Of a stretch of DNA of 64,000 bases, positions 2,452 through 49,633 are shown piece after piece. Position 1 is the first letter of the stretch; each line of letters starts with the position of its first letter. This stretch comes from an uncultured virus (IMG/VR IMGVR_UViG_2541047319_000002) (Duplodnaviria > Heunggongvirae > Uroviricota > Caudoviricetes): the IMG/VR virus record IMGVR_UViG_2541047319_000002. One strand, given 5' to 3'. The notes below the pieces were generated by a model that was given only the letters and a program-made list of their open reading frames with translations, had not been told where the DNA came from and did not search any database. A program made the translations under genes and the position numbers.

Positions 2452-5400
2452 TTAAAGTGTTTCAACATCTAAATTGAATAACATAGATGGTTTTTTTATA
2501 GTTGTATTAGTGTTTCCTTCTTCTACTATTACTTTAGGTTGTGCAGATTGTATATTCATATCTTTTAACTCATATATCTCCTTATATCCATTCTTAGTTT
2601 TTCTTGTCTCTACTTTAACCATATCTTTAAATGTATCTGATTCATTTATCTTTAATTGTACTTTTAATTTATTTACTAAATGATAAATTGGATTGTTAGA
2701 ATTTAAATCTTCTAACAGACCTTTATTGAGTGTAAGTACTACATCTTGTGAATTATCAACTATACTAGATACATTATAAGTATTCCCATTGATTAATACA
2801 GTTGAATCTTTTACTATAGTTGCTCCTGCTTCTTTTTTATAAATATAAACATTTATATATAAATTATTTCCAATGTCAGAATGTGCTTTAAATACAATCT
2901 TATTTTCTCCAAGAACTAAATCCTCTGGATTAATCTCAAACGTAACTGTTCCTGTAGATAAGTCTTCTATTATACTTGAACTAATATTATTTATAAACAT
3001 CTCTATTTTTGTCAATTCATTATTTGGATTTTGCAAATCTATTTCAATAGATGAGTATGACTTATTCTTTATTTCCAAACAAGTTTTCTCTGAATCTACT
3101 TTTGAGATTATATATAATGTTTCATCTTTTATTAAAGCATCCACTATATCATTAACATCTCTTGGAATATATATTTGTGAGAAAGTATATAACATAGAAC
3201 CAATCTCTACATCTTTAATTTTATATGTTTCCTTATTTATCCCTGTAACATACAAAGTCTTATCATTTTTTATAACAAATATATGTTTATCATCATAAGA
3301 TTTTATATATTTTACATTTTCTAATACTTTAGTAAATAATTTAATAATTGTATTTTTTGTATTCTCATTCAGTCCTAAGATTCCATTTATATTATATCCT
3401 TGTACGTATAATTGACCTTCTGTAGTTATAGCCAATATATAATTACTATAAGCATATATCTCCCTTATATTAGAAATAGTTAATACTTCTTGTAACTCAT
3501 TAACCTCATCATTATGCCCTATTCCAAGTTGATATTCTGAGTTTTTACCAATAGAAAACAATGAGCCATCATTTTTTAAGAAGTAAGTAAAATTATCACC
3601 ACAAGCAACATCTATTATATTTGTTAAGTTAATTTTTATAAATTCAGAAGTTGTTGTTAGCTCAGATTTATTTATAGCAAGTTCCCCAAATTGATTTGAA
3701 CCACAACCATAGACATCCCCATTTTCTAATATCAAAATTGAATGAGTTGATGATAAAGACATCTTTTTTATATTATCAAAAGGCAATGAAGTTGAATAAT
3801 TTCCAGCATTTGTGCCAAATGGTATTCTATAATTAATACTATCATCATTATGTAAAAATATCTTCTTATTTACTAATAGTCCATAATTATTTCTTATAAT
3901 AGACATTTCATTAGAAAAACTTAAATCACTAGGATTATCACTAGAAGTGTTTGCAATCTGATTTTCTTCATGTCCATTAAAAATACCTACTTGACCAACT
4001 ACAGCATTACCTTTTCCTTCTAATTTATTATTAGTATATTGAACTATAAGACCATTATGCTGTGTATATACCTGTTTTACATTAAGGCAATTTCTAACAG
4101 GTGTTTTTTGTACAACATCAGAATAATTATTGATTTGACCCAATTGTCTACTACCAAACACATATAAGGCATTATCATTATCTATATAATAAGCATTTTT
4201 ACCATTTGCATATATGTGCTTTATATTACTTGTTAATTTTTTTAATACTACAGTACCAGATTCATTAAAACCTATACCATCATCAGCATTTCCTCCAGAA
4301 TATAAATCTCCATTTTCAAGTAAAACAAAAATAGTGTATTCTCCTAGAGCAACCTCTTTTATATTACTATTAAACGCTAAATCCTTATATCCTTCAATAT
4401 ATCCTGATGAATTATTATATGAAGTACCAACACCTAAACCTCCTAATGAGTTATATCCTGTGACAAATATTCTATTTTTCATTGTAATTATAGTTTTGCC
4501 TTCTTCCAACATTAAATTTGATATAGTTGATGGGTCTGTTAATCCTTCAATATTTATTTTAGTTAAACTGTTTGAATTTGTATTTGAACTTATGTAATTT
4601 CTATTTCCACAACCCATTAAAGAAATTATATTATCATTCTCCAATAATATAATAAAAACATACCTTCCACAAAATATATCCTTTATTGTTCCAGAAATAT
4701 TTACTTTAGTAAAAGTATTTCTATTAATATCATCCCCTAATCCTAATTGACCATAGCCATTTGAACCAGTTGAAAATAATTCATTGTCATAGGTTAGAAT
4801 GTAAGAAGATTTGTAACATGTTATTACTTTTTTTACATTATCAATAGGCACCTTAGTAAAAGTACCCCTATCAATATTATCTCCTAAACCTAATTGCCCT
4901 AAGTCATTTGTTCCAATTGAATAGACTTGATTATTATTTGTAAGAATAAATAAACAATCATTCGATGGAATAAATTCTTTTATATTATCTATAGGAACTT
5001 TTATAAATTCAGACCGAGCTTTAATTGTCCCTAACTTGTTACCAGCATTATTACCACAGACATATCCTTCGCTATTATTTAATAATATATATAAAGCTTG
5101 TCTATCACTTTTAATTTCTTTTATATTTGATATGATATATTTTTTAGAAAATTGTTTTGATATATTTACAAAACCATCATGTCTAACATCATAAGGTTTT
5201 TTTATGCCAAAACAGCCATGAGAATTTACTCCAGAACAATATATGTTCCCAAAATAATCTTTAATTACTATCCTTAATCCACTAGCATATATTACTTGTG
5301 AATTATATGCAAAAAAAGCATTTGATAATGTGTATTTTTGACTATTAGAATAATAACTACTGTCTCCTCTTTGCCCACCTGCATTTCTACCTCTTATTTC

Positions 5401-7731
5401 AAATTTAGACTCCATCCTTGTTTTACTTGTTGTATATAAAAGATTGTCTGTTCCAAGATAATGATTATAATAAGGCATAGAAGACGATATAAGACTTCTT
5501 AAACCTAAATTCTTGTCTTGGGATGAAGCTCCAAAAGTCGAAGGTCTTCCTGTGAATTTTATTTCTTTATATCCTCCATCACTAGCATCTAATAATAAAC
5601 ATAAATTATAGTTAGAAACCAGAACTTTTGATAATTTAGGTTCATCTATTAAAACTGCGACTTCATTTGCATTTGAGTTTTTACTTCCTACAAACTCTCC
5701 AAACCTTGAATAATAATCATCAGTTACAGAAATTTTAATACTTGTGCTATAATAATTATGTCTCCCAGAAACATAGTAGTTATTAGACGTAGTTCTAATT
5801 AAACATCCATTATTAAAAGGAATAATTTCAGCAATGTTAGATACATCTGATACTGTTGTATCTGTTTTATATCTTGAATATCTCATCTTAACAAAAACGC
5901 TCCTACTTGAGGTATCATTAAGACTTAATTCGCCAAAAACATTATATCCTGCTGCATAAGATATTCTGCTATTGTCTATGTAATATGAAGAATTTGAATA
6001 TGCAATAATTTCATTTACATAAGTTACAGTACTTACTTTAGTAAAAATATTTCTATTAGTAGCGTCATTAAGTCCTAACTGCCCATAATTGTTTAAACCA
6101 GTTGAAAATAATTCATTAGTAGTTGTTTTTAATAACGCATGGTTATCTCCTACAGAAATTTTGTCAACAGAAGAAATATTTACTTTAGTAAAAGTATTTC
6201 TATTAATATTATCCCCTAATCCTAACACTCCAAATACATTATATCCTGTTGAATATAATGTATTATCACTTAGTAATATAAACGTGAAATATGAGCCTAG
6301 ATTTAAATATATATCTTTTATAGTAACTCCTTCTTCTAATTCCAATGGCACTCTAGTAAACTCATAACAATGACGATTATGACCTAAACCTAAACCTCCA
6401 TAAGCGTTGTATCCTGCTGCGTATAGTTCATTACCATTCACAACAATAAATGTAGAGGTGTCATTTGCTTTCACTAAAGAGATATTCACAAAATTATTTT
6501 CAAGCCCTATATCTAAAACTCTTTCATCATTTTTATTTATTAATAATCTATTATCAATAGACTCAATATGATTACATTCTTCAATATCAAAGTCCTCAAA
6601 TTTTTCAAATCCATATATAAATTTATCATATCTTTTTAAATAAGAAAAACTATAATTGTTATTTCCTGTCATATACAATTCATTGTTGCTAGTTAATATA
6701 AAGCTTATAGCATAAGCACATTTAATTTTACTTATATTTTTAATACTAATAGAAGATTTTCTAGGAGTATATGTTGATGTATCACAATTTATTTTATCTC
6801 CTAAACGCCCATCTGGGTTGGCTCCAGTTACATATATATCATTATTATTAGCTATATAAAATTTATGATATCTACCACTTTCTATATTTTTTACATTAGA
6901 TATAGATAGTTTTGTTAAGACTGTTACTGTAGCTCCTCCACCAACACCAACTTGCCCACTTGAATTATCTCCACAACCATAGACATCTCCATTTTCTAAA
7001 AGAAAATTTACAGCACCTTGAGCAGTAGAAATCTTTATTACATTATCTAAATTTACTTTAGTAAAAATATTTCTATTAGTAGTGTCATTAAGTCCTAACT
7101 GCCCATAGGAATTTGTACCTGTTGAATAGACTTCATTATTTAAAGTTAATATATATGAACAACTGACTCCTGCAAATATTTCTTTAACACTCAAATTATC
7201 AATTTTAGTAAATGTATTTACAGTAGATGTATTTCCTAAGCCTATCCTTCCAAATTTATTATTACCACATACATAAAGCTCGTTGTCATTTGTAACTAAC
7301 ATAGAATAGCCATTCCCACAAGCAATTTGTTTTACATTACTTATATTTATCTTAGTAAAAGTATTTCTATCAATATTATCTCCCAAACCTAACTCCCCAT
7401 CTGTGTTTAAGCCAGTAGAATACACATCTCCGTTATTTTTAAGTAAAAGAGAATGAGTTCCAGAAGATGAAACATACTTAACATTGTCAATATCTATTTT
7501 TGAAAAATATCTTATAGGTGATACTTTATTTCCAAGTCCTAAATTGCCAAAAACATTATATCCTGCTGCATATAACTTTAAATCATCCTTAATTATAAAC
7601 ACAGAACTAGAATCCATATCTGTAAATATATCTTTAACATTAAAAGTATCAAAATTTTTATTAAACTCTTCTATTTTAAATTCTTTGTTTCCAAATAAAG
7701 AACCTCTTTGTAATAGTTTATTCTTTTTCAT
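2452..7731 (-). CDS. Large RCC1/BLIP-II repeat receptor-binding protein (1759 aa)
   Basis: Many G.N.YGQLGLGD...R..FTK repeats (RCC1 blades); located in tail tip module. Confidence 0.8.
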   Translation of the reverse strand: MKKNKLLQRGSLFGNKEFKIEEFNKNFDTFNVKDIFTDMDSSSVFIIKDDLKLYAAGYNVFGNLGLGNKVSPIRYFSKIDIDNVKYVSSSGTHSLLLKNNGDVYSTGLNTDGELGLGDNIDRNTFTKINISNVKQIACGNGYSMLVTNDNELYVCGNNKFGRIGLGNTSTVNTFTKIDNLSVKEIFAGVSCSYILTLNNEVYSTGTNSYGQLGLNDTTNRNIFTKVNLDNVIKISTAQGAVNFLLENGDVYGCGDNSSGQVGVGGGATVTVLTKLSISNVKNIESGRYHKFYIANNNDIYVTGANPDGRLGDKINCDTSTYTPRKSSISIKNISKIKCAYAISFILTSNNELYMTGNNNYSFSYLKRYDKFIYGFEKFEDFDIEECNHIESIDNRLLINKNDERVLDIGLENNFVNISLVKANDTSTFIVVNGNELYAAGYNAYGGLGLGHNRHCYEFTRVPLELEEGVTIKDIYLNLGSYFTFILLSDNTLYSTGYNVFGVLGLGDNINRNTFTKVNISSVDKISVGDNHALLKTTTNELFSTGLNNYGQLGLNDATNRNIFTKVSTVTYVNEIIAYSNSSYYIDNSRISYAAGYNVFGELSLNDTSSRSVFVKMRYSRYKTDTTVSDVSNIAEIIPFNNGCLIRTTSNNYYVSGRHNYYSTSIKISVTDDYYSRFGEFVGSKNSNANEVAVLIDEPKLSKVLVSNYNLCLLLDASDGGYKEIKFTGRPSTFGASSQDKNLGLRSLISSSMPYYNHYLGTDNLLYTTSKTRMESKFEIRGRNAGGQRGDSSYYSNSQKYTLSNAFFAYNSQVIYASGLRIVIKDYFGNIYCSGVNSHGCFGIKKPYDVRHDGFVNISKQFSKKYIISNIKEIKSDRQALYILLNNSEGYVCGNNAGNKLGTIKARSEFIKVPIDNIKEFIPSNDCLFILTNNNQVYSIGTNDLGQLGLGDNIDRGTFTKVPIDNVKKVITCYKSSYILTYDNELFSTGSNGYGQLGLGDDINRNTFTKVNISGTIKDIFCGRYVFIILLENDNIISLMGCGNRNYISSNTNSNSLTKINIEGLTDPSTISNLMLEEGKTIITMKNRIFVTGYNSLGGLGVGTSYNNSSGYIEGYKDLAFNSNIKEVALGEYTIFVLLENGDLYSGGNADDGIGFNESGTVVLKKLTSNIKHIYANGKNAYYIDNDNALYVFGSRQLGQINNYSDVVQKTPVRNCLNVKQVYTQHNGLIVQYTNNKLEGKGNAVVGQVGIFNGHEENQIANTSSDNPSDLSFSNEMSIIRNNYGLLVNKKIFLHNDDSINYRIPFGTNAGNYSTSLPFDNIKKMSLSSTHSILILENGDVYGCGSNQFGELAINKSELTTTSEFIKINLTNIIDVACGDNFTYFLKNDGSLFSIGKNSEYQLGIGHNDEVNELQEVLTISNIREIYAYSNYILAITTEGQLYVQGYNINGILGLNENTKNTIIKLFTKVLENVKYIKSYDDKHIFVIKNDKTLYVTGINKETYKIKDVEIGSMLYTFSQIYIPRDVNDIVDALIKDETLYIISKVDSEKTCLEIKNKSYSSIEIDLQNPNNELTKIEMFINNISSSIIEDLSTGTVTFEINPEDLVLGENKIVFKAHSDIGNNLYINVYIYKKEAGATIVKDSTVLINGNTYNVSSIVDNSQDVVLTLNKGLLEDLNSNNPIYHLVNKLKVQLKINESDTFKDMVKVETRKTKNGYKEIYELKDMNIQSAQPKVIVEEGNTNTTIKKPSMLFNLDVETL

Positions 7732-13988: not shown

Positions 13989-14324
13989 TTATTCAGTTGT
14001 AGTTGCCATTTCTTTTACTCTTTCACTTGCAATGTCATAAACTAAACTATCTTCTCTGACTGATATTACTATTATTCTCATAATATTGTTTTCCATTACT
14101 AAATTATAAACTACTCTTATTCCAATACCTCTTAACTTTATCTTAAAACAATTTGTGAGATTATTATTCCCTTTATTACCTAATGGTTTACCATATCCAT
14201 CAGGACTCGGTAGAGGGTTATAAGAAACTTTTTCAATTGCCTTTAAAACTTGTTTTCTTTGAGAATTATCTAATTTTTTTAAATCTTTATGTGAATCTTT
14301 TGTATAAAAAATATTCCATTTCAT
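13989..14324 (-). CDS. relE: RelE/ParE-family type II toxin
   Basis: W.I.YT..S.KDLKKLD...YGKPLG....NL...FKIKLR..GIRVVY motif; coupled to upstream antitoxin. Confidence 0.85.
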   Translation of the reverse strand: MKWNIFYTKDSHKDLKKLDNSQRKQVLKAIEKVSYNPLPSPDGYGKPLGNKGNNNLTNCFKIKLRGIGIRVVYNLVMENNIMRIIVISVREDSLVYDIASERVKEMATTTE

Positions 14325-14659
14325 TATTCAAAATCCACCTCAATATTTTCAAGGTCTTTTTCACTAATATCCAAATCTTTCATAAGCTCACTTTGAGATA
14401 TTAATTCTTCTTCATTTATATTTTTCATTCTTTTTTCTGTTTCAAGAAGAAGTTTGTAGTCTTCTATGGCATTTATCATTTCTTCATACTTTTCAGGTGT
14501 AATCAAAACACATGTTGGAATATTATTTTTCACAACAATTTTACTTCCAGATTTTTTTACTTCATCAAATATTTTATTTGCTTCCCCTTTGTTGAATCGA
14601 GAAATAGGAACTATAGTATTCAACATATTAGCCATCAGTAAATCTCTATTGTTCAACAT
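14324..14659 (-). CDS. Phd/YefM-family antitoxin
   Basis: IVPISRFNKGEANKIFDEV....KIVVKNN.P.CVLI.PE.YE; stop overlaps toxin start. Confidence 0.85.
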   Translation of the reverse strand: MLNNRDLLMANMLNTIVPISRFNKGEANKIFDEVKKSGSKIVVKNNIPTCVLITPEKYEEMINAIEDYKLLLETEKRMKNINEEELISQSELMKDLDISEKDLENIEVDFE

Positions 14660-15423: not shown

Positions 15424-18400
15424 TTAAGACCTAGTATTAGAAATAATTTTTTTGTTATTTTCTTCAATCATTTTCCTCATCTTCTTTTCAAATTCAGGCA
15501 TTACATCTTTAGTTACATTCCCTTGTACAACAACAAATGGTGAATTATAATTAACTGCTGATATTGGAGATGTACTTCTTGAACGAGAATTTGAAGGAGG
15601 ATTATAATTAGGCATAGCAAATTTACTTAAATCTAATTCATCCAATATGTCATTAATATCTTCTAATGTATCTTTACCTTCTTTTAATCTATCGAGCCAT
15701 TCCTGCTTAGTGACAGAACCCATTGCCAACATACCATCTTCATATTTATTTATGTATTCAATAATAGCATCTTGAAGTTTCTTAACCTCTCCATCAAGAC
15801 CTACAAATTTACCACTTGAAATTGCTTCATTAATTAAATCAACTAAATTTTCATCTGAGTATTTTTTCTCTAACTCTTCTTTTAATTTATCTGCTTCTTC
15901 TTGTAGTCTGTCAGACTCCTTATCATACATATCATTGACTTGGTCGTCCACATGGTCTTGTACTAAATCCTGTAATTTCTTCTGTTCTTCTTTTAATTGT
16001 TTTTGTAAATCTTTAAGTTTCTTCTGACCACTTAAAGAACTATCTCTTTCAGCTATTGCTATTTGCTTTTCTAAATCACTTATTACATCTTGTTGTTCTT
16101 CATAATCATCTTTATATTTGGCTTCTTTTCTTGAATCATTGTAAGCATCTTGTTGCTTTTTAAGAGAATCAATTTTAGCTTTAGTTTCTTTATCTATTTC
16201 TTTAAGTCTCTCTTCAAGCTCTTTTTTATACATGTCTCTAATTTTCTCTTGTAGACTTTGAGCTTCTTTGAGCTGTTCTTTATAAGCATCTTGAATCTCT
16301 TTATTTAAATTTTCTATTTCTTCTTTATTTTGCTTAATTTGATTATTAGCATCAGGTAAATCTTTAAGAAGTAAATCTAAATATTTTTTAGCATTTTCTT
16401 CTATTTCTTTATATTTATCTGCATCTTTGTTATTTTTTAGAAACTCTAATTGTTGCCCATAATTCTTTATATCTTTACCATCAGCAGAAAATTCAAACCC
16501 TTCTTTTGATAACCCTTCTCTTAACTCTTTTGCAGTATCTTCATAGACTTTAATAACATCTTTAATTTCCTTAGCTTGTTTGGCTAATAATTCTTTTTTC
16601 TTTTCAATTAAGTCTAACTTTTCATCTCCTTCAGCATTTTTCATAAGAATGTCTATTAAGTCTATTTCATTTTGTATCTCAGTAACATGTTTTTGTGCTG
16701 AGGTTAAATCCGCTTCCCTAGCAATCTCTTTTAATTCTTTTTTAAATTCCTCTGCTGCTCTAGTTGATTCTATAAGAGAATTTGTTACTTCTTGTTGAGC
16801 ATCTGCAACTTTCGGTATCTCAGTAAAAGCAATCTTTAAATATTCTTCAACAACCTTTTTTTCTTCTTCTATTTTCTTCTTACGTTCTTCACTCTTTTTA
16901 CTACCTTTGTCGCTCTCTGATTGCTTATCTAATTTCTCTAATTCTTTTTCTAATGATATTAATTTTTCTTCATAACTAGTTAAGTTATCATCATCTGAAA
17001 AAGTGTACTTATAATCTTTTTTAAGTCTATCTTTTAGTCTATTCTTTTGAGTATTAAGTGCCTTATCTTTTTGGTCTAACAATGTTAGTTCTTCTTTATA
17101 TAAAGCGTTTTGTTCTTCAAGATATTTAAGTTTATCTTTTCCACTTGAATATTTCATTTTCTTATCTAAAAGAGATATTCTATCTGTAACTTTAGATATC
17201 GCATTTTCTAATTCTTTTAGTAACTCAATGCTATATTTTACTGCTGCATCAATAGATTTTGTATCTAATGCTATTTTAGGAGTTTTAGTTATACGAGAGA
17301 ATTTCTCTGTAAGAGTTTTAATTGGAGATGTGGCTCTTGATACTGTTCTTGAGAATAAAGATGGTTTTGTTACAGGAGTTTCGTCACTTATTGGTGCTGG
17401 TTCTGATGTTCTAGGTTGGGCTGATAGATTAGCTGGAATTGCTTGTGGAGTTTCTATAGAATTTATGGATTGCACACTTTTTCTATCACTCTTTAATCCA
17501 CCTAATATATTATTTGCAAATTGAGAAGCAATTCCTCCTAGAGTCCCTACTGTACGAAGATGTGCTGTTATTGTAAAACTCTTATCACTTAGTTTTTTAT
17601 TTTCAGTTTGACGAATTGTTTCTAAAGCAGCAGAATTATTCGCTTTAAGTTTAGCCCACTTGTCTTTTATTGTTTTTTTATCAACACTATCTATGCCCTC
17701 AATAGCTCCTTCAATAGCTGCAATTACTTCAACTTGTTTTTCAGGAGGTAATTTTTCTATTTCAGCAATTAATGAATTAATATCTCCATTAGTTAGTGAT
17801 TTTATTATATTTATTTTTACGTCTTTGTCTAGGTCTAAAGCATTTAAATTCTCAACTTCATCTAATGCATCTGGATTATTTACTATAAGATTAGCTATAA
17901 TGTCTTTGCTTTCAGGGAAATCATTATAAAGTTGTTCTATTAAATATAACTTATCTTCATTATTTAACATAAAATTAAGAACTTGATTTTTTTGTTCATC
18001 TGGTGTTGATTCATATAGTTTTGTAGCTCTCTCAAGCTCATCTGCATTTTCTACAGCAAAGCTAACAACCTTACTTTTTGTTTCTTCTGGAACATTATCA
18101 TATAGTTTTTGAAATGCTTCAGCCTTTTCTGGATTTTTAATTATAACTTCGGCAAATACTTTTTTATCTTTTTTGTCTTCTAATCCATCATATATAGATT
18201 TCATTTTATCAAAATCATCTAAACCATTTAAATTTATGCTATAATCCATAGCTATAGTTGGATTATCCATAAGCCATTTTTGTACGGCTTCATAGTCCTT
18301 TAGATTTTTTAAACTATCAACATTATCAGTTATAAATTTATTAGTAAAAGTTGAATTTGTTGGAAGATTTTTTACTATATCAGCAAAAATTTTAACTTGT

Positions 18401-21400
18401 TCAGTCTCAATACCTGATGATTCTAATTTTAATTTTACATCATTTCTTCCTTCAAGCTGTTTAAATGAATTTAAAGTATTTCTAAGCTCTTCATTTTTCT
18501 TTAACTTAAGTTCAATTTGTTTTGTTGGAGGTGTATTTAATATATCATCTACAAGTTTTTCTGCTTCTTTATCTTTTGAAAATGCATATCCTTTAGGATT
18601 CTGCTTGTCTTTTAAAGCTTCTTTAGTAGCTTTTTTAGCTTCTTTAACAGGGTCTTTCTTATCTTTATCGCCATTTATTTCTTTTAATTTTTTTTGAATC
18701 CATTCAATAGCATCTGATGCTAAGTCTTTAACCTCTATAGTAAAAATTTTATTTGCTATTTCAGAAGAACTAATAGTCTCAATATCATCTTTAGCTTTTT
18801 CTATTTCAGCAATTATTTCTACTCGTTTATCTGGTGGTAAACTTTCAATAGCTTTGCCTAAAGCATCTATATCTCCATCAGATAAGGCTTTGTATATATT
18901 TATTCTTACATCCTTATCTAAAGGAATTTTATCCAATGATGTTATTAAATCCTGAACCCCTAATTTACCATCATTTTGCTTCAAATATATTTCTGTAATT
19001 TTCTCATCAGGTATATGTTCTAAGGCATCTTTTAAATTAACAGAATTATACAAAGCCTCTCCCGCTTCTGCTATAAAATATGTTTTAAGTTCCGCAGGTA
19101 CTTTCTTATATATCTCTGATACTTCAACAGCTTTTTCTAGTCCAACTCCATCAGCTTCTAATTTAGTTTTGAGTTCAGAAGGTACTTCGGCATACTTAGA
19201 TGTTAAATCTAATATTTTTCTACCACCTTCGTCTGCTCCTTCTTCTTTTATGATAGTTTTTACTTCTTTTGGAAATTTATCATAAATTCTTTTTACTGAA
19301 TCAGCTTCTTCTAATGTTGTAGTTGGATTAGCTTTTATGACTGTGATTACTTCTTCTGGAAGCTCCTCATATCTTTGCTTTAAACTACTTATTATTTGTT
19401 CTGCATTAGCTTGACCTGAATCATTACTTAAAAGTATTTCTGGAGTTATAGTAAACTTACCTTTTCCAAATTTATTATCTAAATCATTTTGAAGTTTAGT
19501 TATATCTGGGTCACCAGTCTGTAATTCCATTAATACATCCATAGTGAATTTTAATACATCAGTAGAACTTGCCCCTGTTCCTAATAGAGCATCTATCATG
19601 CCTTTAACTTGACTAGGAACTTCTTTAGTATTCTTAATGTCAGTTAATATATTTGCATCAACTTTTACATCTCCAGTTATTGTTGTTGTATCTAATATAT
19701 TCTGAATACTATCAAATTGATTTTGGAGTTGCATTGCAAGTTTATCACCATTTGCTAAATCTAGTTTTGTTTTACCAAACTTAGCTAATAATGTATTTAT
19801 AGATGTCATATCTTTAATTCCATTTGGATTTACTTGCCCAAATAAATTTTCCCATATATTAGCATCTGTGTTAGTTGCTTTAGCTATACTCTTAGCTGTT
19901 TTATCTATTGTTTGATTATATTTTTCTATATCTTGTGTTCTAGCAAATTCTTCATTTGCATCTTTAAGAGTTTTAGATAAATCTCCTACATCAACTTTCC
20001 CACTTCTAACAGCAGTAAGCAATTTGTTGACTGCCTGTTCTGTGTCTACTAGAGTATCTGGTGTAACTTCACTAAAATCAAATAAACTTTCAAGTCCAGC
20101 AAAATTAGACTTATCATTGCCTTCTAATCCACTATAAAGAGTTTTATTCTTAATGTTAGAAAATATTCCATCTCCTATTTCTTTTGAATACCCTTGAATT
20201 TTATCTACTTGATTTCTATACATTTCATCATATTTGAAATATATTTTTTCTTCTTCTGCTTTAGCTGACATTAATTCATTTCTGGCTTTATCTCTTGCTC
20301 TGCCAGTTGAATTATTATATTTCTCGATTGCTTTTTCTTGTCTTTTTTTATTCTTTTCAACTTCTGCTGTATAATCTTCTTCTATTTTTACAAGCTTACC
20401 AGTTTCACTTTCTCTCATTCTTTCTTCTAAAGTTTTATTTACATCTTTACTTGGAGAATTTAATTTTTTAGCAGCAGTTTTCGCATTATCATGTTTATCA
20501 TAGGACATCAATCTTTCTTTTGCATTGATAGCTCTATCTATTTCAGCAATTAAATCAGTAACCTGACCTTTTAAAATAGGTATACCATTTTCATCTGTTC
20601 CTATAACTGCATCTGGTTTTATTTTTGCAATCTGTTGTTTTAGTTCATTTAATCTATTATTATCTTCTTTAGACTTATTTTCTTTTTTAGATAAATTATC
20701 ATATTCTTCTGCAAGTGCTTGTAATTGAACTTTTTGGCTTTCATATGAATTAATTTGTTGTTTTGAAGCTTGAATATTTTTCTTTCTAGCTTGATAAGCA
20801 TTTTCTTCTCTATTTGCATAATTTTCCATAGCTTGTGCTAATAGACTTACACCTGCAAATGCAGCAGTTAAAACTAAAGAATTTCCAACTGTAGTTGCTA
20901 TACCTTTACCAAAATTTACAATGCTACTCCCTGCAAATGCCTTACCAATATTACCAAGCCCATCACTTATTGTATCTTTTCTACTTTTAGAAACAACTTT
21001 TAATTTTTGATTATATTTTTCATATGACTTTGTTCTGTCTTCATTTATTTTTATTTCTTTAGCTGTTGCCTTTTTTAAACTATTGGTTGTTGATGTATAT
21101 TTTCCTACAATGCCATTTTGACTATTTATAGTTCTATTAACAACTTGATTTGATTTAGCATTGTTTTTTGAAGCATTAGTATTTTTATTTATAGCACTTG
21201 TATATTGATTAGTAAATTTTGTAGCTCTTTCAAAGTCTTTAAATTTAACAGATTTTCTATTGTTTTGAAAGGCACTAAATATACTTCCTCCTAAATTCGT
21301 GATTGGTTTACTGGTACCTAATGCTTTAATTGTCATAAATAAAGACGATAAACCTGCTAGGGCTACAGGAAGCGAAACATGCATTTTGTCAGCCGCTTTA

Positions 21401-24400
21401 GTTATACCATTTAAAATTCCAGTAACACCAGATAATCCATCTAAACTAGTCTTAAACATATCTGTAGATATAGTGTCTGTGACTAATTGTTTAAGACTTT
21501 CTTTTAATTTTATAATCTTACCTTCTGCTGAATTTATGAATCTCTCATTCTCTTTTTCAGCAGAGCCAAATACATCCCCATCTAACCATGCACTTTGGAA
21601 TTTTTTTCGATTGTTATTAACCAGTAGCTTTTTATCTACTGCTCTGGAGGTTTCCCTCATTTTCATCGACTTGTCATTTCAAGTCCAGTCTAGCATATCT
21701 TTTGTACTCATAACAAAGACCATAAAACCACAGAGCCTCTTGGAGATATTATATTCTATTTCTAGTTTCAATCTCTATGCGTTGCGGATGGAAAGCCTTT
21801 TAAAACTTACCTTCACCTCTGATTAGCGTATTTATTAAAATAAACTTAGCTTTCCAGATTTTCTCTCTGTTAATACTCTTAATTCTTCTATGGTAGTTGA
21901 ATTAAGACGGCAATTTATTTTTACCTGATTCCAATTATCCATGACAGCCATGAATGTATTGATGTGGTTTTTACCTGAACAAAATCTTCAATTAAGTTCG
22001 CTATACTTAACTCGTTCTCTTATGAACTGCTATATGTTTCCATATAGATGAGACTATATCTTCATCCTATAAGGATGCTCCCCATTTCCACTATCAATAG
22101 CTTATAGTGTACGGTTTATAACCTAGTCGTTGAACCTTACTCTCTTGAGTCTTGGTTGCTGATTATCCCTATCTTTTAATTTTTCACACTTTGGTACTAA
22201 AAGCCTAACGGGAGTTTCCAGCAATTAAAGGAGTTTATCATTATATATTACTATATAAGGCGACTAAAATTAATCGCTTCGGCAATACCACTTTTTTGAT
22301 TTTTAGTTAAAGCATCTTCTCCAACACTATGCCACTTTTCTGCCAACTCATCTAAAATTGACATCATATCTCTTACTTGGCCAGTTTGCTTATCTAACAC
22401 ATTTATTTTTGCTGTTTCTTGTAATGTTTTAGCAGTTTTGTTAAGGCTGATTTTTCCTGAATCTGCTGAAGCTTTGATACCACTCATGTTTATACCAATT
22501 GTTTTGAGTGCTGTACCTACTTTTTCAGCATTTTGTACAGATTCATTTCCTCCAACTATCAAGGCAACAGAGTCTTCCATTGAAACGCCTGCTGATGATA
22601 ACATACTTGCACTTCTTTGTAATGCAGCTCCTACATCGCCAGTTGTTATTGCAAAATTATTACCTGCATAGTTCGATAAATCAAGAAATTTTGTAAGATT
22701 ATCATAATCTTTACTCATTCCTTTGATTTGGACTCTAGTATCTTTAATTGGTTTTAATGCTTTTGTCATTCCACCATAAGCGGACATAACACTAGTTAAG
22801 TACTTATCAGCAGTTTCTTGGTCTAAATCCAATTGTTATTAGCTCAAGGTTTTTTATCCTTGACTCTGGAGGTTTCCCTCATTTTCATCAGTTAGTTAAT
22901 TCTAACTCAGCTTAGCATATCTTTTTTACTTATAATTAAATCATAAAGTAAATGGGAACTCTTGGAGATATTATATTCTATTTCTAGTTTCAATCTCTAT
23001 GCGTTGCGTGTGACCAATCTTTTAAAATTAGCCTTCCACTCGGATTAGCATTTTAAAGCTTTCCCGTTTCTTTCCCATTAATAATCCTAATTCTTCTATG
23101 ATTGTTGAATTAAGACGGCAATTTATTCACCAACATTTGCAAAAACTGCTGATTGTTTAGCTATCTTCAAACTGTCTGATACCGATTTTACACCAGTTTG
23201 TAGAGCTTTAGATGCCCCCTGAATTATATCTTCTGATGCTCTAGCCGTATCCTTCCCTATTGAGATTGCTTCATTTTTTACACTCTTTAATTGCTCACTT
23301 GTTCCTTCAAAATTATCAGGTGCTACTTTCATCATATCTCTTAAGGCACTATCTAGTTCAACAATAGTTGTTTTAATATTTCTTACACCATTTGTAATAG
23401 ACATACCTATCATATTACCCAAAGTATAGGTTCTCATTGAGCCATATAAATCACTAAAGAAACCATTTGTTGTTTTTACACTAGTTCCTAATCCTGTGAA
23501 ATTAGATTTCATATTGTTTAATCTATTTTTTATTGCATCTAATTCCTTTACTTTTTGACCTAGAGGCATCCCATTTAATTGCATTAATTCTTTTTCGAGT
23601 TTATCAATCCCAGCAGTTGACTGACCTAATTCTAAACATTTTTGTCTAAGCCTATTCAAATCCGAAATTACTTTAGAAAGATTCATATTAAATTTAACAT
23701 CTAGTTTAGTATTTTTAATAGCACCTTCTACCTCTTTAACCTTGTTTTTCATTGATTCTAAGCCAGTAATTGCTGCGGTCATCCCACTGCTATTCATATT
23801 TCTAAAATCTAAACTTTGTATTTTCTTTAAATCATTTAACATGGCATTTAACTGAGAAGAATTCGCATATTTAGAATTTGATAATTTAGCTATTCTTGAT
23901 TCTAATTGAGATGCATCTTTTTGAAGTGTTTTAAATTGAGCTGACATACTATTATTTATATTTGGAAGTTTAAATTTAGAAATTCCATTTTGAACAGCTT
24001 GTACATCAGATAGTAATTTTGACATACTTTCGAACTTCAATCCCTTTAATTCTGTACTAGATAATCTAGTTAATTTCGAAGACAATGCATCTAATTCACT
24101 TAACTGAGCATTGTTTAAAAACTTACTTTGTTTTAGCTTACTAATCTGATTTTGCATTTTTTCTATATCAGCTTGAGCCTTTTGGAAAGTTGTTGCTAAA
24201 GACCTTTGCATACTATCAAATGCACTATCATTAACCTGAGTTTTTCCTTTTAGATTATCCAACGCAGAACCTAGATTAGAGATTTGATTAATAGTTCTAG
24301 TTAATTGACCATTTAATTCTGTATAAGACTGAACATTTGTAGTCTTAGACATTTGCTTTTCAATTGTATTTTTCTTATTAATTAGTTTTTGATAATCTGA

Positions 24401-24655
24401 TAGTAAACTATTTACTCCTAAACTAGAGCCTTTATTAGATTTACCTCCAAATAAGTTATTTTGAGTTTTTGCACTCAAAGCGTTGATTTTAGTTAAGACG
24501 CTTTCTAATTGTTTTAAATTATTTAATGAAGATGTATTCATCTCTACATTTAACTTTATATTATTTTCTTTTGCAGATGCCTTCAGTGATTCTAATTGTT
24601 GTCTAGCTTTTTTATCATCAAGCTCTATACTGGTTCTAATCTTAAACTCTGACAT
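15424..24655 (-). CDS. Tail tape measure protein, four exons: 24655-23129, 22829-22273, 21979-21923, 21607-15424 (2774 aa spliced)
   Basis: Joined exons total 8325 nt in one frame: ...FANVG|DLDQE..., ...IAEAI|SGKNHINTFMAVMDNWNQV|KKFQ...; TMP core motifs (ELDSALRDMMKV, GNNFAIT, GTALKTI). Confidence 0.9.
21608..21922 (-). ncRNA. Group I intron 3 of tape measure gene (315 nt, no ORF)
   Basis: Exon ends CAGGU; IGS UUGCC gives U.G splice pair; R GCAACGCAUA and S AAGAUAUGCU; ends in G; paralogue of intron 1. Confidence 0.85.
21980..22272 (-). ncRNA. Group I intron 2 of tape measure gene (293 nt, IA-like, no ORF)
   Basis: P1 GCGAU/GUCGC; canonical P AAUUGCUGGAAA, Q AAUCAGCAACC, R UUCAACGACUA, S AAGAUAUAGUCU; terminal G. 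Confidence 0.92.
22830..23128 (-). ncRNA. Group I intron 1 of tape measure gene (299 nt, no ORF)
   Basis: Exon ends GUUGGU; IGS UUGCC; P AAACGGGAAA, Q UAAUCCGAG, R GCAACGCAUA, S AAGAUAUGCU; ends ...CAAUUG. Confidence 0.85.
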
Positions 24656-26728: not shown

Positions 26729-27772
26729 TCATTTACTCAAGTATTTATTAATATCTTCTTTACTAGCTTCCTCTATGTAATCTATCATACAGATTGGAAT
26801 ATCCCTACTGCTAGAAACATCACTTATTTCTTCTACTCTTATTTTCTCATTTCTTACACTCTTTAATATTCCAATAAATCCATAGTACTCATGGTCATAT
26901 ATAGCATATGTTTTGCCTATCTCAACCATTACACCTTTTATGTAATCATTATTTATCATAAATCTCTTAAGTACCTGACTATTCTCTTTCAATATTTTGT
27001 TAAGAAAATATATTTGTCCTTTTCCAGTTACAATAGGAGTATATCTAACTATCGTATTTCCATCTTTATCTATCCCAGTACTCTCAGAAACCTCTAATAC
27101 TTTCAAATCCATTGACTTTTGAGTTGGAGTATTATGGTCAGCTCTTTTCTTCCTAATTAGATATTCATTATTTCTCATCCACTCAAATAATCTATTCTGC
27201 CCTATATCTACTCCATTCTGATTTAATATCTTAGATAGTTGAGCAATTAGTATTGAGCTTGATGAACTTTCTATAGCATTAGCTAGTTCAAGTTTAGGTT
27301 TATTTTTCTCTTGCTCTACTTTTAACTTTTCTTTAGTAGCTCTCTCTTTCTTTAGTTCTGTAAGTAATTTTATAGTCCAATCTGGGTCATTGATTGCCTT
27401 CTCTAATGCTTCATTAGTCATATAAGCTCCATGTTCTCTTATTGATGGAAGAACTTCATCAAATACCCAACGCTCAAATTTTTCAGCACTTGGTAATTCG
27501 CTATTTGTAATTAATCTATACATATCACCTTCCGGTATTATATTCACTTCCAAAGTTTTAGTTTTACTTTGTGGGTGAGGTATGTGGTGTTTCACCACCC
27601 ACTTACAATGTTGTTTAATTGCATTTGTTGTGTCCTTATACCCAAGAGCTTTTGCAATATCTGTTGCGACAAAATAGGGTTCATTTTCAATTCTAATTGT
27701 TCTTATTTCTCCAAATAATTCATTGTTAAAGCTTATTATTCTTTTTTCATTTTCTCTATTAATTATCTCCAT
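26729..27772 (-). CDS. BRO-N / ANT (KilA-C) phage antirepressor
   Basis: FGEIRT...EPYFVATDIAKALGY, AEKFERWVFDEVLPSIR (Bro-N); IGQNRLFEWMR and TGKGQIYF (ANT). Confidence 0.9.
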   Translation of the reverse strand: MEIINRENEKRIISFNNELFGEIRTIRIENEPYFVATDIAKALGYKDTTNAIKQHCKWVVKHHIPHPQSKTKTLEVNIIPEGDMYRLITNSELPSAEKFERWVFDEVLPSIREHGAYMTNEALEKAINDPDWTIKLLTELKKERATKEKLKVEQEKNKPKLELANAIESSSSSILIAQLSKILNQNGVDIGQNRLFEWMRNNEYLIRKKRADHNTPTQKSMDLKVLEVSESTGIDKDGNTIVRYTPIVTGKGQIYFLNKILKENSQVLKRFMINNDYIKGVMVEIGKTYAIYDHEYYGFIGILKSVRNEKIRVEEISDVSSSRDIPICMIDYIEEASKEDINKYLSK

Positions 27773-28032
27773 AATTAATCCCTCCTTATAAGTTGTATTT
27801 TTTATAAGAAGCTGATATAATCATTCTATTCAAGTTGATAATTATATCAGCTATTTAAGAAGTCTTACTCGCCGTCCAAAGTTTGTAAGGCTTCTTTTTA
27901 ATTACTAAAAGTAATTTTATCACTTAAAGTAATTTATATTTTTATAATACACTCCACATAATGTAATGTCAAGTATAATATTTTATTACTTTATGTGGTA
28001 TAATAATTATAAAGATATCTTGGAGGTGAAAA

Positions 28033-28482
28033 ATGTTTGGAGAAAGATTAAAAAAGCTTAGAATTAAGTTTGGATTAAAGCAACATGAATTAGCTGAAAT
28101 ATTAAATGTATCACAAAGCACTATAGGTATGTATGAAAACGACCAAAGAACTCCACCAGCAGAGTCTATAGTTAAACTAGCTGAATACTTTAATGTCACT
28201 ACAGATTATCTTTTAGGTCATACAAAAACCAACTATTCAGTCAGTGCAAATATACCTGGTATGCCATCAATCATATGCGAAGATACTTCCATCTATGATA
28301 TAGTTGATGAAAAAAAAGACATTAAGTCTTTAGAAGATATAAATAAATTCTTAGAAAATAATAATTATAATGACGAAGTCAAAGAAGTTCTTAAAAAATA
28401 TATGCAACTAGATGAAATGGATAGAAAAGCTATAGAGAGAATGATAGATAATGCATATGAGAGACTAAAAGAGGATAATTAA
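28033..28482 (+). CDS. XRE-family HTH repressor, divergent from antirepressor
   Basis: FGERLKKLR...LKQHELAEILNVSQSTIGMYE...FNVTTDYLLG. Confidence 0.9.
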   Translation: MFGERLKKLRIKFGLKQHELAEILNVSQSTIGMYENDQRTPPAESIVKLAEYFNVTTDYLLGHTKTNYSVSANIPGMPSIICEDTSIYDIVDEKKDIKSLEDINKFLENNNYNDEVKEVLKKYMQLDEMDRKAIERMIDNAYERLKEDN

Positions 28483-28617
28483 TATATACCTCTTTTTTAA
28501 AATTATGATTGTCATATACCTGTCACTATTGAAATCGCTAATATACAAATCACTCAATTAAAAAAGACAATCAACTGACTGCCTTTTATTTATATATAAT
28601 AATTTTTACTTATCTGA

Positions 28618-29718
28618 TTAATTCTCTTCATCTGAATATTCTACTTGAAGACCATATATAGCTACATATGCTCTAAAGTCAAATATTTCATTTTTAAATT
28701 TTTCCAAATCATCTTGAGAATTAGATTTTTTATATGCCTTAGCATATTTAACCATATTGTCATAGGAAGTCTTAGCTGCTGAAAAATGGTCTAATGCTTT
28801 ACTAACTCTTTCATCATTTTTAAACTTTCCTTTATTATTTTCTATATAACTTACATCAATATTTTTATCTGAATAGAAGTCAGGAACAATCTTTTTAACT
28901 TTTTCATAAAGATTTTCATCTAAAGGGTCTATATCTTTAGGAATAGAATCTGAAATAATCTCATACTCTTTCATTGCTTTTTCAATGTTCATCATCATGG
29001 TTTCTGAAGTAGATTTAGCCTTGTTTAATTCACTATTTGATTTTATGGAATTCTCTAAAGCTCTATAATTTGATAGAAATTCATCTGTTTTAGTATTATT
29101 ACTAGCAGAATAATCTACATAACTTCCACTTGGCTCAGTTGCAAAACTATGAAAATCTGTGTATGAATTATAGAATTTTTCTATTGTACTCAAAATATCA
29201 TTTAAATCCTCACTACCTTCAGGAACAGATTTCAATTTACTATATATTTTTAGAAGTTCATCATCATATTTTTTTGACTTCTCTATTTCGTCACCTTTAT
29301 CCAACATTGCAGCGAAAATAGCAGCATCAATATTAGAACCATGTTTCTTTTCATAAATATTTTCTTTCCAATAAGTTTGAATGGTGTCAGCAATATCTTC
29401 TAAATTAGCACCTGCTACATAACTTTTTTCTTGAAAATCTTTAATAGTCATTATGTATTTCGCCCTAGCTTCTTGTTGTTTTTTTTCCTTGATATTGATA
29501 CTGGTGAAAATCCCCACTATGACCATCAATATTATACCAGCAAAAATATAAATATACTTTTTATTTATTGATGCTTTTTTACTTATTACAGTCTTTTCAT
29601 CTACCTTCTTACCACACTTAGAACAAAAAAGTTGTCCTTCTAATAACTTTTCTCCACATGATGTACAAAATTTAGTACTATCATTTTCCTGTGATACTTT
29701 GTTTTCATCTTCACTCAT
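28618..29718 (-). CDS. Zinc-ribbon membrane protein (moron)
   Basis: FCTSCG...FCSKCG double zinc ribbon, then TM helix and large helical domain. Confidence 0.75.
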   Translation of the reverse strand: MSEDENKVSQENDSTKFCTSCGEKLLEGQLFCSKCGKKVDEKTVISKKASINKKYIYIFAGIILMVIVGIFTSINIKEKKQQEARAKYIMTIKDFQEKSYVAGANLEDIADTIQTYWKENIYEKKHGSNIDAAIFAAMLDKGDEIEKSKKYDDELLKIYSKLKSVPEGSEDLNDILSTIEKFYNSYTDFHSFATEPSGSYVDYSASNNTKTDEFLSNYRALENSIKSNSELNKAKSTSETMMMNIEKAMKEYEIISDSIPKDIDPLDENLYEKVKKIVPDFYSDKNIDVSYIENNKGKFKNDERVSKALDHFSAAKTSYDNMVKYAKAYKKSNSQDDLEKFKNEIFDFRAYVAIYGLQVEYSDEEN

Positions 29719-30949: not shown

Positions 30950-31182
30950 TTATCCCTGATTATGTATATATCTTTCAATAGTTTCTTTAGAAATATTCCC
31001 TATACTACAAGCAAAATATCCATCTGACCAAAAAGTCTTTTCCTTCCAAAAATATTTGTTAAGATATAATTGATTATTATTAATTCACCAAATTTAATTA
31101 GCAAATTTTTTCTGTATTTACATACAAATATCAGATGTACTAATAACAAATACTTAGAATGGTTTCTACTAACATAATCCAT
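30950..31182 (-). pseudogene. tnpA: IS200-type Y1 transposase TnpA with internal deletion
   Basis: N-terminal HLIFVCKYRK in one frame, C-terminal FWSDGYFACSIG.IS.ETIERYI.NQG in another; central HuH region missing. Confidence 0.85.
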
Positions 31183-32521
31183 GACTCCAATTTAACCCCT
31201 TCTTAAAGATATATGGCTTAATTAGTTTTACACTTGGTACTTTTTTGATTTCTTTTAAAGCTATGTATTTACCCTCATTTTGACTGCCTTTAACTGTATA
31301 AACATTTCCATTATATTTAATCAAGTCATTTGGCTGATACAATGATTTTTGCTTCCTTATTCTTCTTTGACCTTTAGATATTTTTTGACCTCTAAACACC
31401 CTAAGATTTTCAGAATTTAAATTTTTATTTCTAGTTCTTCTTCCACAATTAAGTTCACTTGCAGAAACCTTCTCACCAGTTCTATTATCTATATATTTAG
31501 CATCATAGAATTTTTCAAGACTTCTATTATTTAATCTTGACTGTTCAACTTTAAATATTTCTAAATTTCTAACTTGATTAACACCTTTAGCTATAGCAAA
31601 AGCATCATTAAAATGACTTTTTTCTATACCATGTTCAATTCTATGATTTTTAGTCAAATAACCATAAGTTGCTTTAATGTTAGTATATTTTTCTTTCAAC
31701 TGTTCCAATAAGTACCATCTTATCATTGACATAAATGTAGCATCTCTAAAACCTCTGACCTTTTTACCATTTTCACACCAATCATACAAAAATTTCCCCT
31801 TTTTATGATTAGGAGATGTATGACATTTATTACACAAAGTTATTAAATTACTAGGAGCATCAGAACCACCCTCACTCTTGTACTTAATATGATGAATTTC
31901 TAATATCTGTTCTTTACTCTTATTCTTACAATTAGGATTTTGACATTTATGTCCATCTCTATGAAGTACATATTCTCTAACATTCCAGAAACCCATTTGT
32001 TCTCCCTGTTGATATTCTACACCAGATATATCAGGATTCTTGATTTTTTGTATATCAAAATTAGCAACCTCTAATACTATATTTCTGATAGGCAATATAG
32101 TATTAAGATAATCTATAAATTTAACATGAGTATCCAATTTATGTTGTAAACTTGGTGCTAACCATCCTTGTCTTATTTTTCTATTGTTCCATCTAGGTTT
32201 TCTATATCTTAACCTTTGTCTCCTAATTCTTCTATACTGACTTTTTTCTAATAATCTATCTTTCATACCTTGAAGCAATTTTACTTCTCCAACTATTAAT
32301 TCTTTACTATCTGTTATAGCTGAAAATCCTATATTTAAATATCCACTATCTATCCCCAATGTTATAGTTTGAATATATTCAGTATCTGTCTTATATAATA
32401 ATTGTATAATAAATGGATTAACTCTTTTAACAGTAGCTTTCTTTTGTTTTAATAATTTTCTAGCCTTTGCATTAGTAGTAGGCATTAATGGTTTTCCTTC
32501 AAAATTAATTACATATACCAT
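31169..32521 (-). CDS. iscB: IscB RNA-guided endonuclease (PLMP, RuvC, bridge helix, HNH)
   Basis: GKPLMPT; RuvC-I LGIDSG; Arg-rich RRIRRQRLRYR; RuvC-II VLEVANFD; HNH EIHHI...SNLITLCNKCH; RuvC-III SHFNDA. Confidence 0.93.
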   Translation of the reverse strand: MVYVINFEGKPLMPTTNAKARKLLKQKKATVKRVNPFIIQLLYKTDTEYIQTITLGIDSGYLNIGFSAITDSKELIVGEVKLLQGMKDRLLEKSQYRRIRRQRLRYRKPRWNNRKIRQGWLAPSLQHKLDTHVKFIDYLNTILPIRNIVLEVANFDIQKIKNPDISGVEYQQGEQMGFWNVREYVLHRDGHKCQNPNCKNKSKEQILEIHHIKYKSEGGSDAPSNLITLCNKCHTSPNHKKGKFLYDWCENGKKVRGFRDATFMSMIRWYLLEQLKEKYTNIKATYGYLTKNHRIEHGIEKSHFNDAFAIAKGVNQVRNLEIFKVEQSRLNNRSLEKFYDAKYIDNRTGEKVSASELNCGRRTRNKNLNSENLRVFRGQKISKGQRRIRKQKSLYQPNDLIKYNGNVYTVKGSQNEGKYIALKEIKKVPSVKLIKPYIFKKGLNWSHGLC

Positions 32522-32529
32522 AGTATAAT

Positions 32530-32764
32530 CCTTTCAGATAATTTAACCTCACCTTACGGTGGTAAGCTCTCTTCGCCAATGTTATGAAAGGTTTTAAATA
32601 TACCACACTTCACCTGCCATCAGTGATGTTTAATGATATACCGTAGAGTTTAGGACTAGAGAAGTATCCTAAAGTACCTATATATTCTTACATAACGTAG
32701 TGTAAACTTAGGCTATTCAACTAGCTTTTACAAGCTACTACCCTTTAGGGTGGTGGCAGTTGAC
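32530..32764 (-). ncRNA. omega RNA (HEARO-like) scaffold of IscB; guide derived from flank at 32765 and above
   Basis: Begins GUCAACUGCC..., contains GUUGAAUAGCCUAAG, CUACGUU, CAUUGGCGAAG elements and multiple hairpins directly upstream of iscB. Confidence 0.82.
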
Positions 32765-49542: not shown

Positions 49543-49633
49543 TGGAAGAGAGGAAGGGATTTGAACCCTCGTATCAAATTAATTGACCTAATAGTTTAGC
49601 AAACTATCCTCTTTACCACTTGAGTACCTCTCC
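49543..49633 (-). tRNA. tRNA-Ser(GCT)
   Basis: GGAGAGG acceptor, anticodon arm ATAGT-TTGCTAA-ACTAT, long variable arm, GAGGG-TTCAAAT-CCCTT T arm, encoded CCA. Confidence 0.93.

Follow-up and report, generated by a model that had tools for sequence, protein, structure and literature searches.

The tape measure gene and its interruptions

The stretch of DNA analysed here (IMG/VR record IMGVR_UViG_2541047319_000002; 64,000 nucleotides, hereafter the window) carries on its minus strand an interrupted phage tail tape measure gene and, judged by nucleotide identity, the element that hosts this gene is a phiCD211/phiCDIF1296T-like Clostridioides difficile phage-plasmid of ~130 kb. Positions 21500-23300 are 100% identical to NZ_CP037823.1 and NZ_CP037807.1, both of them circular records deposited as plasmids, and share 95-97% identity, in separate pieces, with the phages AR1086-1, phiCDIF1296T and phiCD211. 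The minus-strand list of open reading frames (ORFs) contains three tape measure fragments, 24655-23123, 22832-22251 and 21666-15424. Excising 23128-22830, 22272-21980 and 21922-21608 from this strand in silico yields a single 8325-nt frame with one terminal stop, which encodes 2774 amino acids (aa) and has the junction peptides ANVG/DLDQ, AEAI/SGKN and WNQV/KKFQ (here and in the splice sites below, the slash marks the joint). These boundaries, the frame, the junction peptides and a 57-nt exon between the second and third interruptions had been proposed in a first-pass annotation of the sequence, and all of them were reproduced to the base. The resulting gene is organised as follows.

Exon 1, 23129..24655, minus strand: 1527 nt, 509 codons, 3' end ...GTTGGT; ORF 23123..24655
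Intron 1 (I1), 22830..23128, minus strand: 299 nt, group I, second (AR9-gyrA-like) family, no ORF
Exon 2, 22273..22829, minus strand: 557 nt, 3' end ...GAAGCGAT
Intron 2 (I2), 21980..22272, minus strand: 293 nt, group I, RF00028 type, no ORF
Micro-exon 3, 21923..21979, minus strand: 57 nt (the equivalent of 19 codons), with entry in phase 2
Intron 3 (I3), 21608..21922, minus strand: 315 nt, group I, I1 family, no homing-endonuclease ORF
Exon 4, 15424..21607, minus strand: 6184 nt including the stop; frame continuous once spliced

Exon 2 matched the PF10145 PhageMin_Tail profile with 62.5 bits (E 6.6e-17; curated cut-off 33.2 bits). Exon 1 runs directly into exon 2 in both phiCD211 and AR1086-1, and the natural exon 1+2 fusion of AR1086-1 scored 73.9 bits against the same profile (profile positions 2-190), with a match that spans the I1 junction; exon 4 is 98% identical to the tape measure genes of these two phages. 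In the RefSeq annotation of NZ_CP037823.1, the three coding sequences (CDS) are called hypothetical, tape measure and hypothetical: the 'phage tail tape measure protein' is the exon 2 piece alone, the exon 4 CDS is a 'hypothetical protein' whose start ATG lies inside I3, and the 19-codon micro-exon is omitted. The CDS names in the phiCD211 record are 'Minor tail protein' and 'Tail tape measure protein'.

If I1, I2 or I3 is retained, translation reaches an in-frame stop after 6, 22 or 88 nt of intron, respectively, and the longest stop-free stretch is 33 aa in I1, 33 aa in I2 and 72 aa in I3. No homing-endonuclease ORF was found in or near the three introns. A 175-aa antisense ORF that overlaps I3 (21299-21823) matched no Pfam family, and the sole HNH protein among the 47 ORFs of the window is IscB (31172-32521).

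Intron 2 and a second family of group I introns

The Rfam covariance model RF00028 matched I2 with 103.6 bits (E 4e-27; model positions 1-253; 22030-22281, minus strand), the cut-off being 50 bits. I2 escaped an Rfam scan of the entire window in the default gathering mode and was recovered in the permissive mode; fast-filter Rfam scans can lose strong matches to AT-rich introns. The ~50 nt of I2 beyond the end of the RF00028 model fold, as read by eye, into an additional hairpin at the 3' end, ahead of the terminal G.

I1 and I3 are 76-77% identical to one another and fall into a second family, the profile of which (nhmmer) matched I1 with E 1e-39 and I3 with E 2.6e-35. I1 and I3 have their nearest sequence relatives in gyrA introns of two phages, the Bacillus jumbo phage AR9/PBS1 and Yersinia phage phiR1-37; these introns are 72-74% identical to I1 across 84-86% of its length. 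The AR9 gyrA CDS is annotated as a three-piece join, and further split genes carrying relatives of I1 and I3 are gyrA of BpSp, the terminase gene of a C. perfringens phage and the major tail protein gene of a staphylococcal phage. The core motif of the family turned up in no fewer than 108 contigs of viruses and no fewer than 120 of bacterial genomes, mostly from Bacillota; the chromosomes that carry it include those of many Bacillaceae (Neobacillus, Mesobacillus, Virgibacillus and others), and it also occurs in Bacteroidota, Ignavibacteria and other metagenome-assembled genomes. No further intron of either family was found within the 64-kb window besides I1, I2 and I3, and when more copies were sought in the identical public record and two relatives, just the three known introns were recovered.

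For the family alignment, 72 of 101 distinct viral-contig stretches were kept, having an S-like motif in the extracted range, and the 29 without the motif were dropped. Together with I1, I3 and six members from phage records these made 80 sequences, of which 74 remained at <92% identity and were aligned with MAFFT without structural input. The C. perfringens phage terminase member, which matches just the 3' half of I1, and the staphylococcal phage member, which diverges after P8 with an apparent inserted ORF, were left out. A structure of 53 pairs in 11 helices was drawn by hand on I1, with P2, P3 (AAUGGGAA/UUCCCAUU), P4, P5, P6, P6a, P7, a P7.1/P7.2 arm and P8. In this structure P3 encloses P4-P6, P7 (GCAUA/UAUGC) crosses P3 as a pseudoknot, and the P7.1/P7.2 arm has a GAAA loop. 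Subgroup IA is marked by an additional arm that separates P7 from the 3' strand of P3, and I1 may be of IA type.

The hand-drawn P2-P8 structure was paired in 77.3% of 3778 alignment cells, compared to 58.2% in shuffled alignments and 33-47% with slid partners. Cells changed on both sides numbered 895 against 359 in the control, and the covariation score was reached by 0/500 shuffles; double changes were present in 7 of the 8 pairs of P3 and in 3 of the 4 pairs of P7.1. RNAalifold, run on five full-length members, returned P2, P3, P4, P5, P6, P6a, P8, P9, P9.1 (GAGG-GAAA-CCUC) and P9.2, and 38 of the 63 pairs showed compensatory changes. I1 keeps every helix, and its differences from I3 are compensatory, for example in P3 (UGGGA/UCCCA vs CAGAG/CUCUG) and in P4 (CGGG/UCCG vs CUGG/UCAG). 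By the structural definition, a P3-P8 core with covariation, both I1 and I3 are thus group I introns.

Splice sites and intron-less alleles

At all three sites the 3'-terminal base of the 5' exon is T and the terminal base of the intron is G (I1 GGT/G...TTG/G, I2 GAT/T...TTG/T, I3 GGT/A...TCG/A). As claimed in the first-pass annotation, the exon-terminal U is able to form the U.G pair in P1, for which the pairings, read by eye, are UGGU/GCCG in I1, GCGAU/GUCGC in I2 and GGU/GCC in I3. DNA comparison with intron-less relatives lets the boundaries slide by 1 nt (I1), 1 nt (I2) and 5 nt (I3), and only the positions given above, which are those of the first-pass annotation, satisfy both the U and the G rule. 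The intron-less alleles and the RNA joints, in which 299, 293 and 315 nt are skipped, agree with these coordinates.

In phiCD211 all three elements are precisely absent and the sequence reads through, as in GTTGGT/GATTTAGAC, while in AR1086-1 both I1 and I3 are precisely absent and I2 is present. In phiCD211, micro-exon 3 is continuous with the exons on either side, and in AR1086-1 it adjoins exon 4 directly. The empty sites and the contiguous micro-exon in these relatives therefore rule out three independent genes. Compared across these alleles, I1, I2 and I3 are discrete insertions in one reading frame.

Splice joints in RNA-sequencing contigs

The RNA data consist of contigs of four RNA-seq runs (X1, X2, X4 and X5). 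The contigs of X1, X2 and X4 have 0 differences from the window, X5 represents a relative 90-95% similar to it, and the runs contain 0.85 of the sampled words. The I3 joint, in which 315 nt are skipped, was present at a depth of 33.4 (X1), 8 (X2) and 123.8 (X4), next to an unspliced 370-nt I3 contig with depths of 31.3, 8.83 and 115. The I2 joint (293 nt skipped) reached a depth of 52.6 in X1 and 17.5 in X2, with 6.1 and 4.8 for the unspliced form; in X4 this joint lies within a 23,865-nt contig of mean depth 402.5, and the unspliced contig has a depth of 35.8. The ratio of joined to unjoined forms was ~9:1 (X1) and 4:1 (X2) for I2 and ~1:1 for I3 in the same runs, and RNA contigs join micro-exon 3 on both sides. 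Splicing of I2 and I3 is thus supported by RNA contig joints found beside the unspliced forms. The I1 joint (299 nt skipped) was present in X4 and X5. The X4 strain probably lacks I1, and its 299-nt joint therefore does not show splicing of I1. For I1, splicing is inferred.

Intron positions in related phage-plasmids

Related elements carry introns at other positions of the same gene, in the alleles below with boundaries determined by eye.

phiCD211: a single third-lineage intron (RF00028 41.7 bits), at window position 22494/22493; no micro-exon
Strain CD161 plasmid: phiCD211-type intron after ...GCAGGT (22662) and I2-type intron after ...GGCGAT (22635); 27-nt micro-exon
p840101_2 (L247): second-family intron followed by an I2-type intron (RF00028 103 bits); 54-nt micro-exon

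The tandem introns of related phage-plasmids lie at ~1847-2428 in NZ_CP029155.1 (L246) and at ~2190-2860 in NZ_CP132148.1 (L247). The 13-nt 5' flank of the I2-type intron of p840101_2, TTGCCGAAGCGAT, is identical to that of I2 in the window, although the intron sits at a different site. Across six alleles, at least eight insertion sites occupied by three ribozyme lineages fall between codons 509 and 714 (~1.2 kb). Six of the sites lie inside the PF10145 match, and those of I2 and I3 lie 13 and 32 codons beyond its end; the 5' exon terminates in GGT at four sites and in GCGAT at three, and three times tandem introns leave a micro-exon (27, 54 and 57 nt). As far as these alleles can tell, phiCD211-like C. 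difficile phage-plasmids have an intron hot spot in and beside the PF10145 match.

Surroundings of the tape measure gene

The neighbours of the tape measure gene include a DUF6558 tail protein, an antirepressor, repressors, an actin-like segregation protein, ArdA, and IscB with its HEARO RNA. The IscB gene (31172-32521, minus strand; RRXRR + HNH, 450 aa) is named RNA-guided endonuclease IscB in RefSeq, and a full HEARO/omega RNA (32562-32764, minus strand; 133.6 bits) lies directly upstream of it. Just downstream of the tape measure gene, two adjoining 111-aa ORFs (13992-14659, minus strand) probably form a toxin-antitoxin pair, as the upstream ORF (14327-14659) matches the Phd/YefM antitoxin family. 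Upstream, a lysogeny-type block (26732-29718) is located between the tape measure gene and other tail genes, and holds a Bro-N/KilAC antirepressor, a divergent CI-like helix-turn-helix (HTH) repressor and a zinc-ribbon protein. The tail/host-recognition region encodes a 1759-aa protein with multiple RCC1-like repeat domains (2455-7731, minus strand; PF25390, 522 bits), and a tRNA gene (49546-49633, minus strand; 57 bits) lies within the phage structural region.

Discussion

Our analysis indicates that 24655-15424 on the minus strand is very probably one late tape measure gene, encoding 2774 aa and interrupted by three ORF-less group I introns that belong to two ribozyme lineages. The first-pass annotation had arrived at three ORF-less group I introns from the letters alone, and this is upheld by the covariance-model match of I2, the covariation of I1 and I3, the empty sites, the RNA joints of I2 and I3, and stop-free stretches of at most 33 aa in I1 and I2. 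After transcription, each intron would fold into a group I core; free guanosine would attack after the exon-terminal U held in the U.G wobble of P1, and the terminal G of the intron would then take the place of the guanosine, so that the exons are ligated. This self-splicing chemistry of I1, I2 and I3, like the spread of the introns without an endonuclease, is what we infer. Only the triply spliced mRNA would yield the full-length protein, since each retained intron brings in an in-frame stop. The late stop of I3 (88 nt) would let ribosomes enter as far as P5, and we speculate that such entry might explain why spliced and unspliced forms are about equal for I3, compared with 4-9:1 for I2.

Several observations weigh against this reading. 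RF00028 gave I1 and I3 just 13.1 and 13.2 bits, in a local match at model positions 62-94 that is below the cut-off. The same model matched 0/20 other members of the second family at E <= 1, and we attribute the low scores to a limit of the model, which is blind to this lineage, rather than count them against the fold. P7 is invariant across the 74-sequence alignment; this invariance is partly by construction and counts little, because the selection motif fixes its 5' strand and a regular expression its 3' strand. The P1 of I3 is short (5 bp, by eye). The RNA evidence is made up of contigs, three of the runs belong to a single study, and DNA may be present in an RNA library. Finally, the sequence of I1 has zero cover in X4 despite deep flanks, though a hole in the contigs by itself proves nothing.

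This last point bears on an alternative in which I2 and I3 splice and I1 has decayed, so that a 510-residue exon 1 product is made, no tails are assembled and the element persists as a plasmid. The element is indeed deposited as a circular plasmid, and the RNA joints of I1 do not come from a strain known to hold this intron. However, I1 retains all its helices, with compensatory differences from I3, as well as the U.G pair and the terminal G, and the 2265 codons downstream stay open; we therefore consider decay of I1 unlikely. The first-pass annotation had also suggested that micro-exon 3 could be skipped, which would give a tape measure isoform 19 residues shorter. The length of the micro-exon is a multiple of three, so exons 2 and 4 would stay in frame, and exon skipping is reported for Twort orf142 (23-nt exon), Coxiella 23S rRNA (34-nt exon) and a SIOphi polymerase gene (PMC10136302, PMC11878797). 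Here, the 21607/22273 joint was absent from the RNA contig joints, although contigs can drop rare forms; I2 and I3 cannot form a single composite ribozyme because they are of different families, and the GCGAU end of exon 2 mismatches, by eye, the GCC guide of I3 for GGU. The proposed isoform is accordingly quite improbable.

It is very unlikely that the joined forms in the RNA libraries represent DNA of a co-resident phage variant without introns: such alleles are found in nature and may have entered as DNA, but the flanks are identical to the window, three runs agree, and the joined to unjoined ratios of I2 and I3 differ sharply within the same run, which argues against a mixture of two DNA alleles. 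Hardly credible at all is the view that these are three separate genes or pseudogene fragments with non-splicing gaps, the tail being built from fragments or the phage being defective, since the three CDS listed for NZ_CP037823.1 and the two for phiCD211 are outweighed by the exact exon-exon joints in RNA contigs, the I2 covariance-model match and I1/I3 covariation, the contiguity of the 57-nt exon and every junction in relatives, and the PF10145 match that crosses the I1 site in the natural fusion.

Precedents for such an intron-split gene exist in other phages. The first-pass annotation named Twort orf142 as the main multi-intron late gene, which overlooks the tape measure genes of Bacillus cereus-group prophages, where the relevant section of Tourasse and Kolsto (2008, PMC2504315) describes three sites occupied by subgroup IA group I introns (TMP-IVS1, IVS2 and IVS3a/b). 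IVS1 and IVS2 are 80% alike, occupancy varies between strains, and TMP-IVS3b is stated to lack a complete endonuclease gene. The present gene resembles that system in having related introns at different sites of the same gene (I1 and I3 at 76-77%), in the lack of endonucleases, and in three tape measure sites whose occupancy varies between related prophages, the ribozymes being compared by description only. It differs in the host clade and the tape measure protein, in carrying three introns where the section gives a maximum of two per gene, and in its micro-exon, a feature that does not appear in that section.

In Staphylococcus phage Twort, orf142, later identified as the tail tube gene, is described (Landthaler and Shub 1999, as cited in PMC10136302 and PMC11878797) as holding three group I introns with a 23-nt exon between two of them; introns 2 and 3, both of type IA2 and very much alike, flank this exon, and its skipping has been demonstrated. 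Both genes thus combine three group I introns and a very short exon in one late tail gene. Unlike those of Twort, the introns flanking the micro-exon of the window come from different families, and the RNA contigs hold no skipped joint. Cluster J mycobacteriophages, in the sections of PMC3706429 on their introns, carry group I introns in capsid and minor tail genes that are efficiently spliced in late expression; these too sit in virion genes and in just some of the related genomes, but with one intron per gene and with the tape measure gene unaffected.

The gyrA introns of AR9/PBS1 and phiR1-37, the nearest relatives of I1 and I3, reside in a DNA-metabolism gene of lytic jumbo phages, and their P1 guide fits other exons. 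Closer by, the phiCD211/phiCDIF1296T GenBank record LN681537.2 marks a tape measure intron as misc_RNA 'Intron_gpI'; this intron shares the phage group, the gene and the PF10145 region with those of the window, but it is single, sits at another site and is of the third lineage. A literature search, which did not cover the 2018 phiCD211 paper, returned no paper that deals with an intron-bearing tape measure gene in a C. difficile phage. New here are the three introns in a tape measure gene, the 57-nt exon, the two lineages in one gene, the direct RNA support and the multi-allele hot spot.

As for the hot spot, the shared 13-nt flank would fit movement with exon co-conversion, either by reverse splicing or by recombination started by a trans-acting nuclease. 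That the region is an active landing pad, in which endonuclease-less introns of three lineages are still moving and splicing efficiency gates tail assembly, is a possibility that we put forward tentatively and regard as doubtful.

For annotation, the real product of the gene is very probably 2774 aa, where RefSeq lists three unrelated CDS, and the error passes into estimates of tail length, proteomic databases and the clustering of phages in this widespread group of C. difficile phage-plasmids. For intron detection, the lineage of I1 and I3 is common yet invisible to RF00028, so that surveys relying on Rfam only undercount it. Close relatives whose differences are almost confined to the occupancy of tape measure sites offer a natural series for the movement of endonuclease-less introns.

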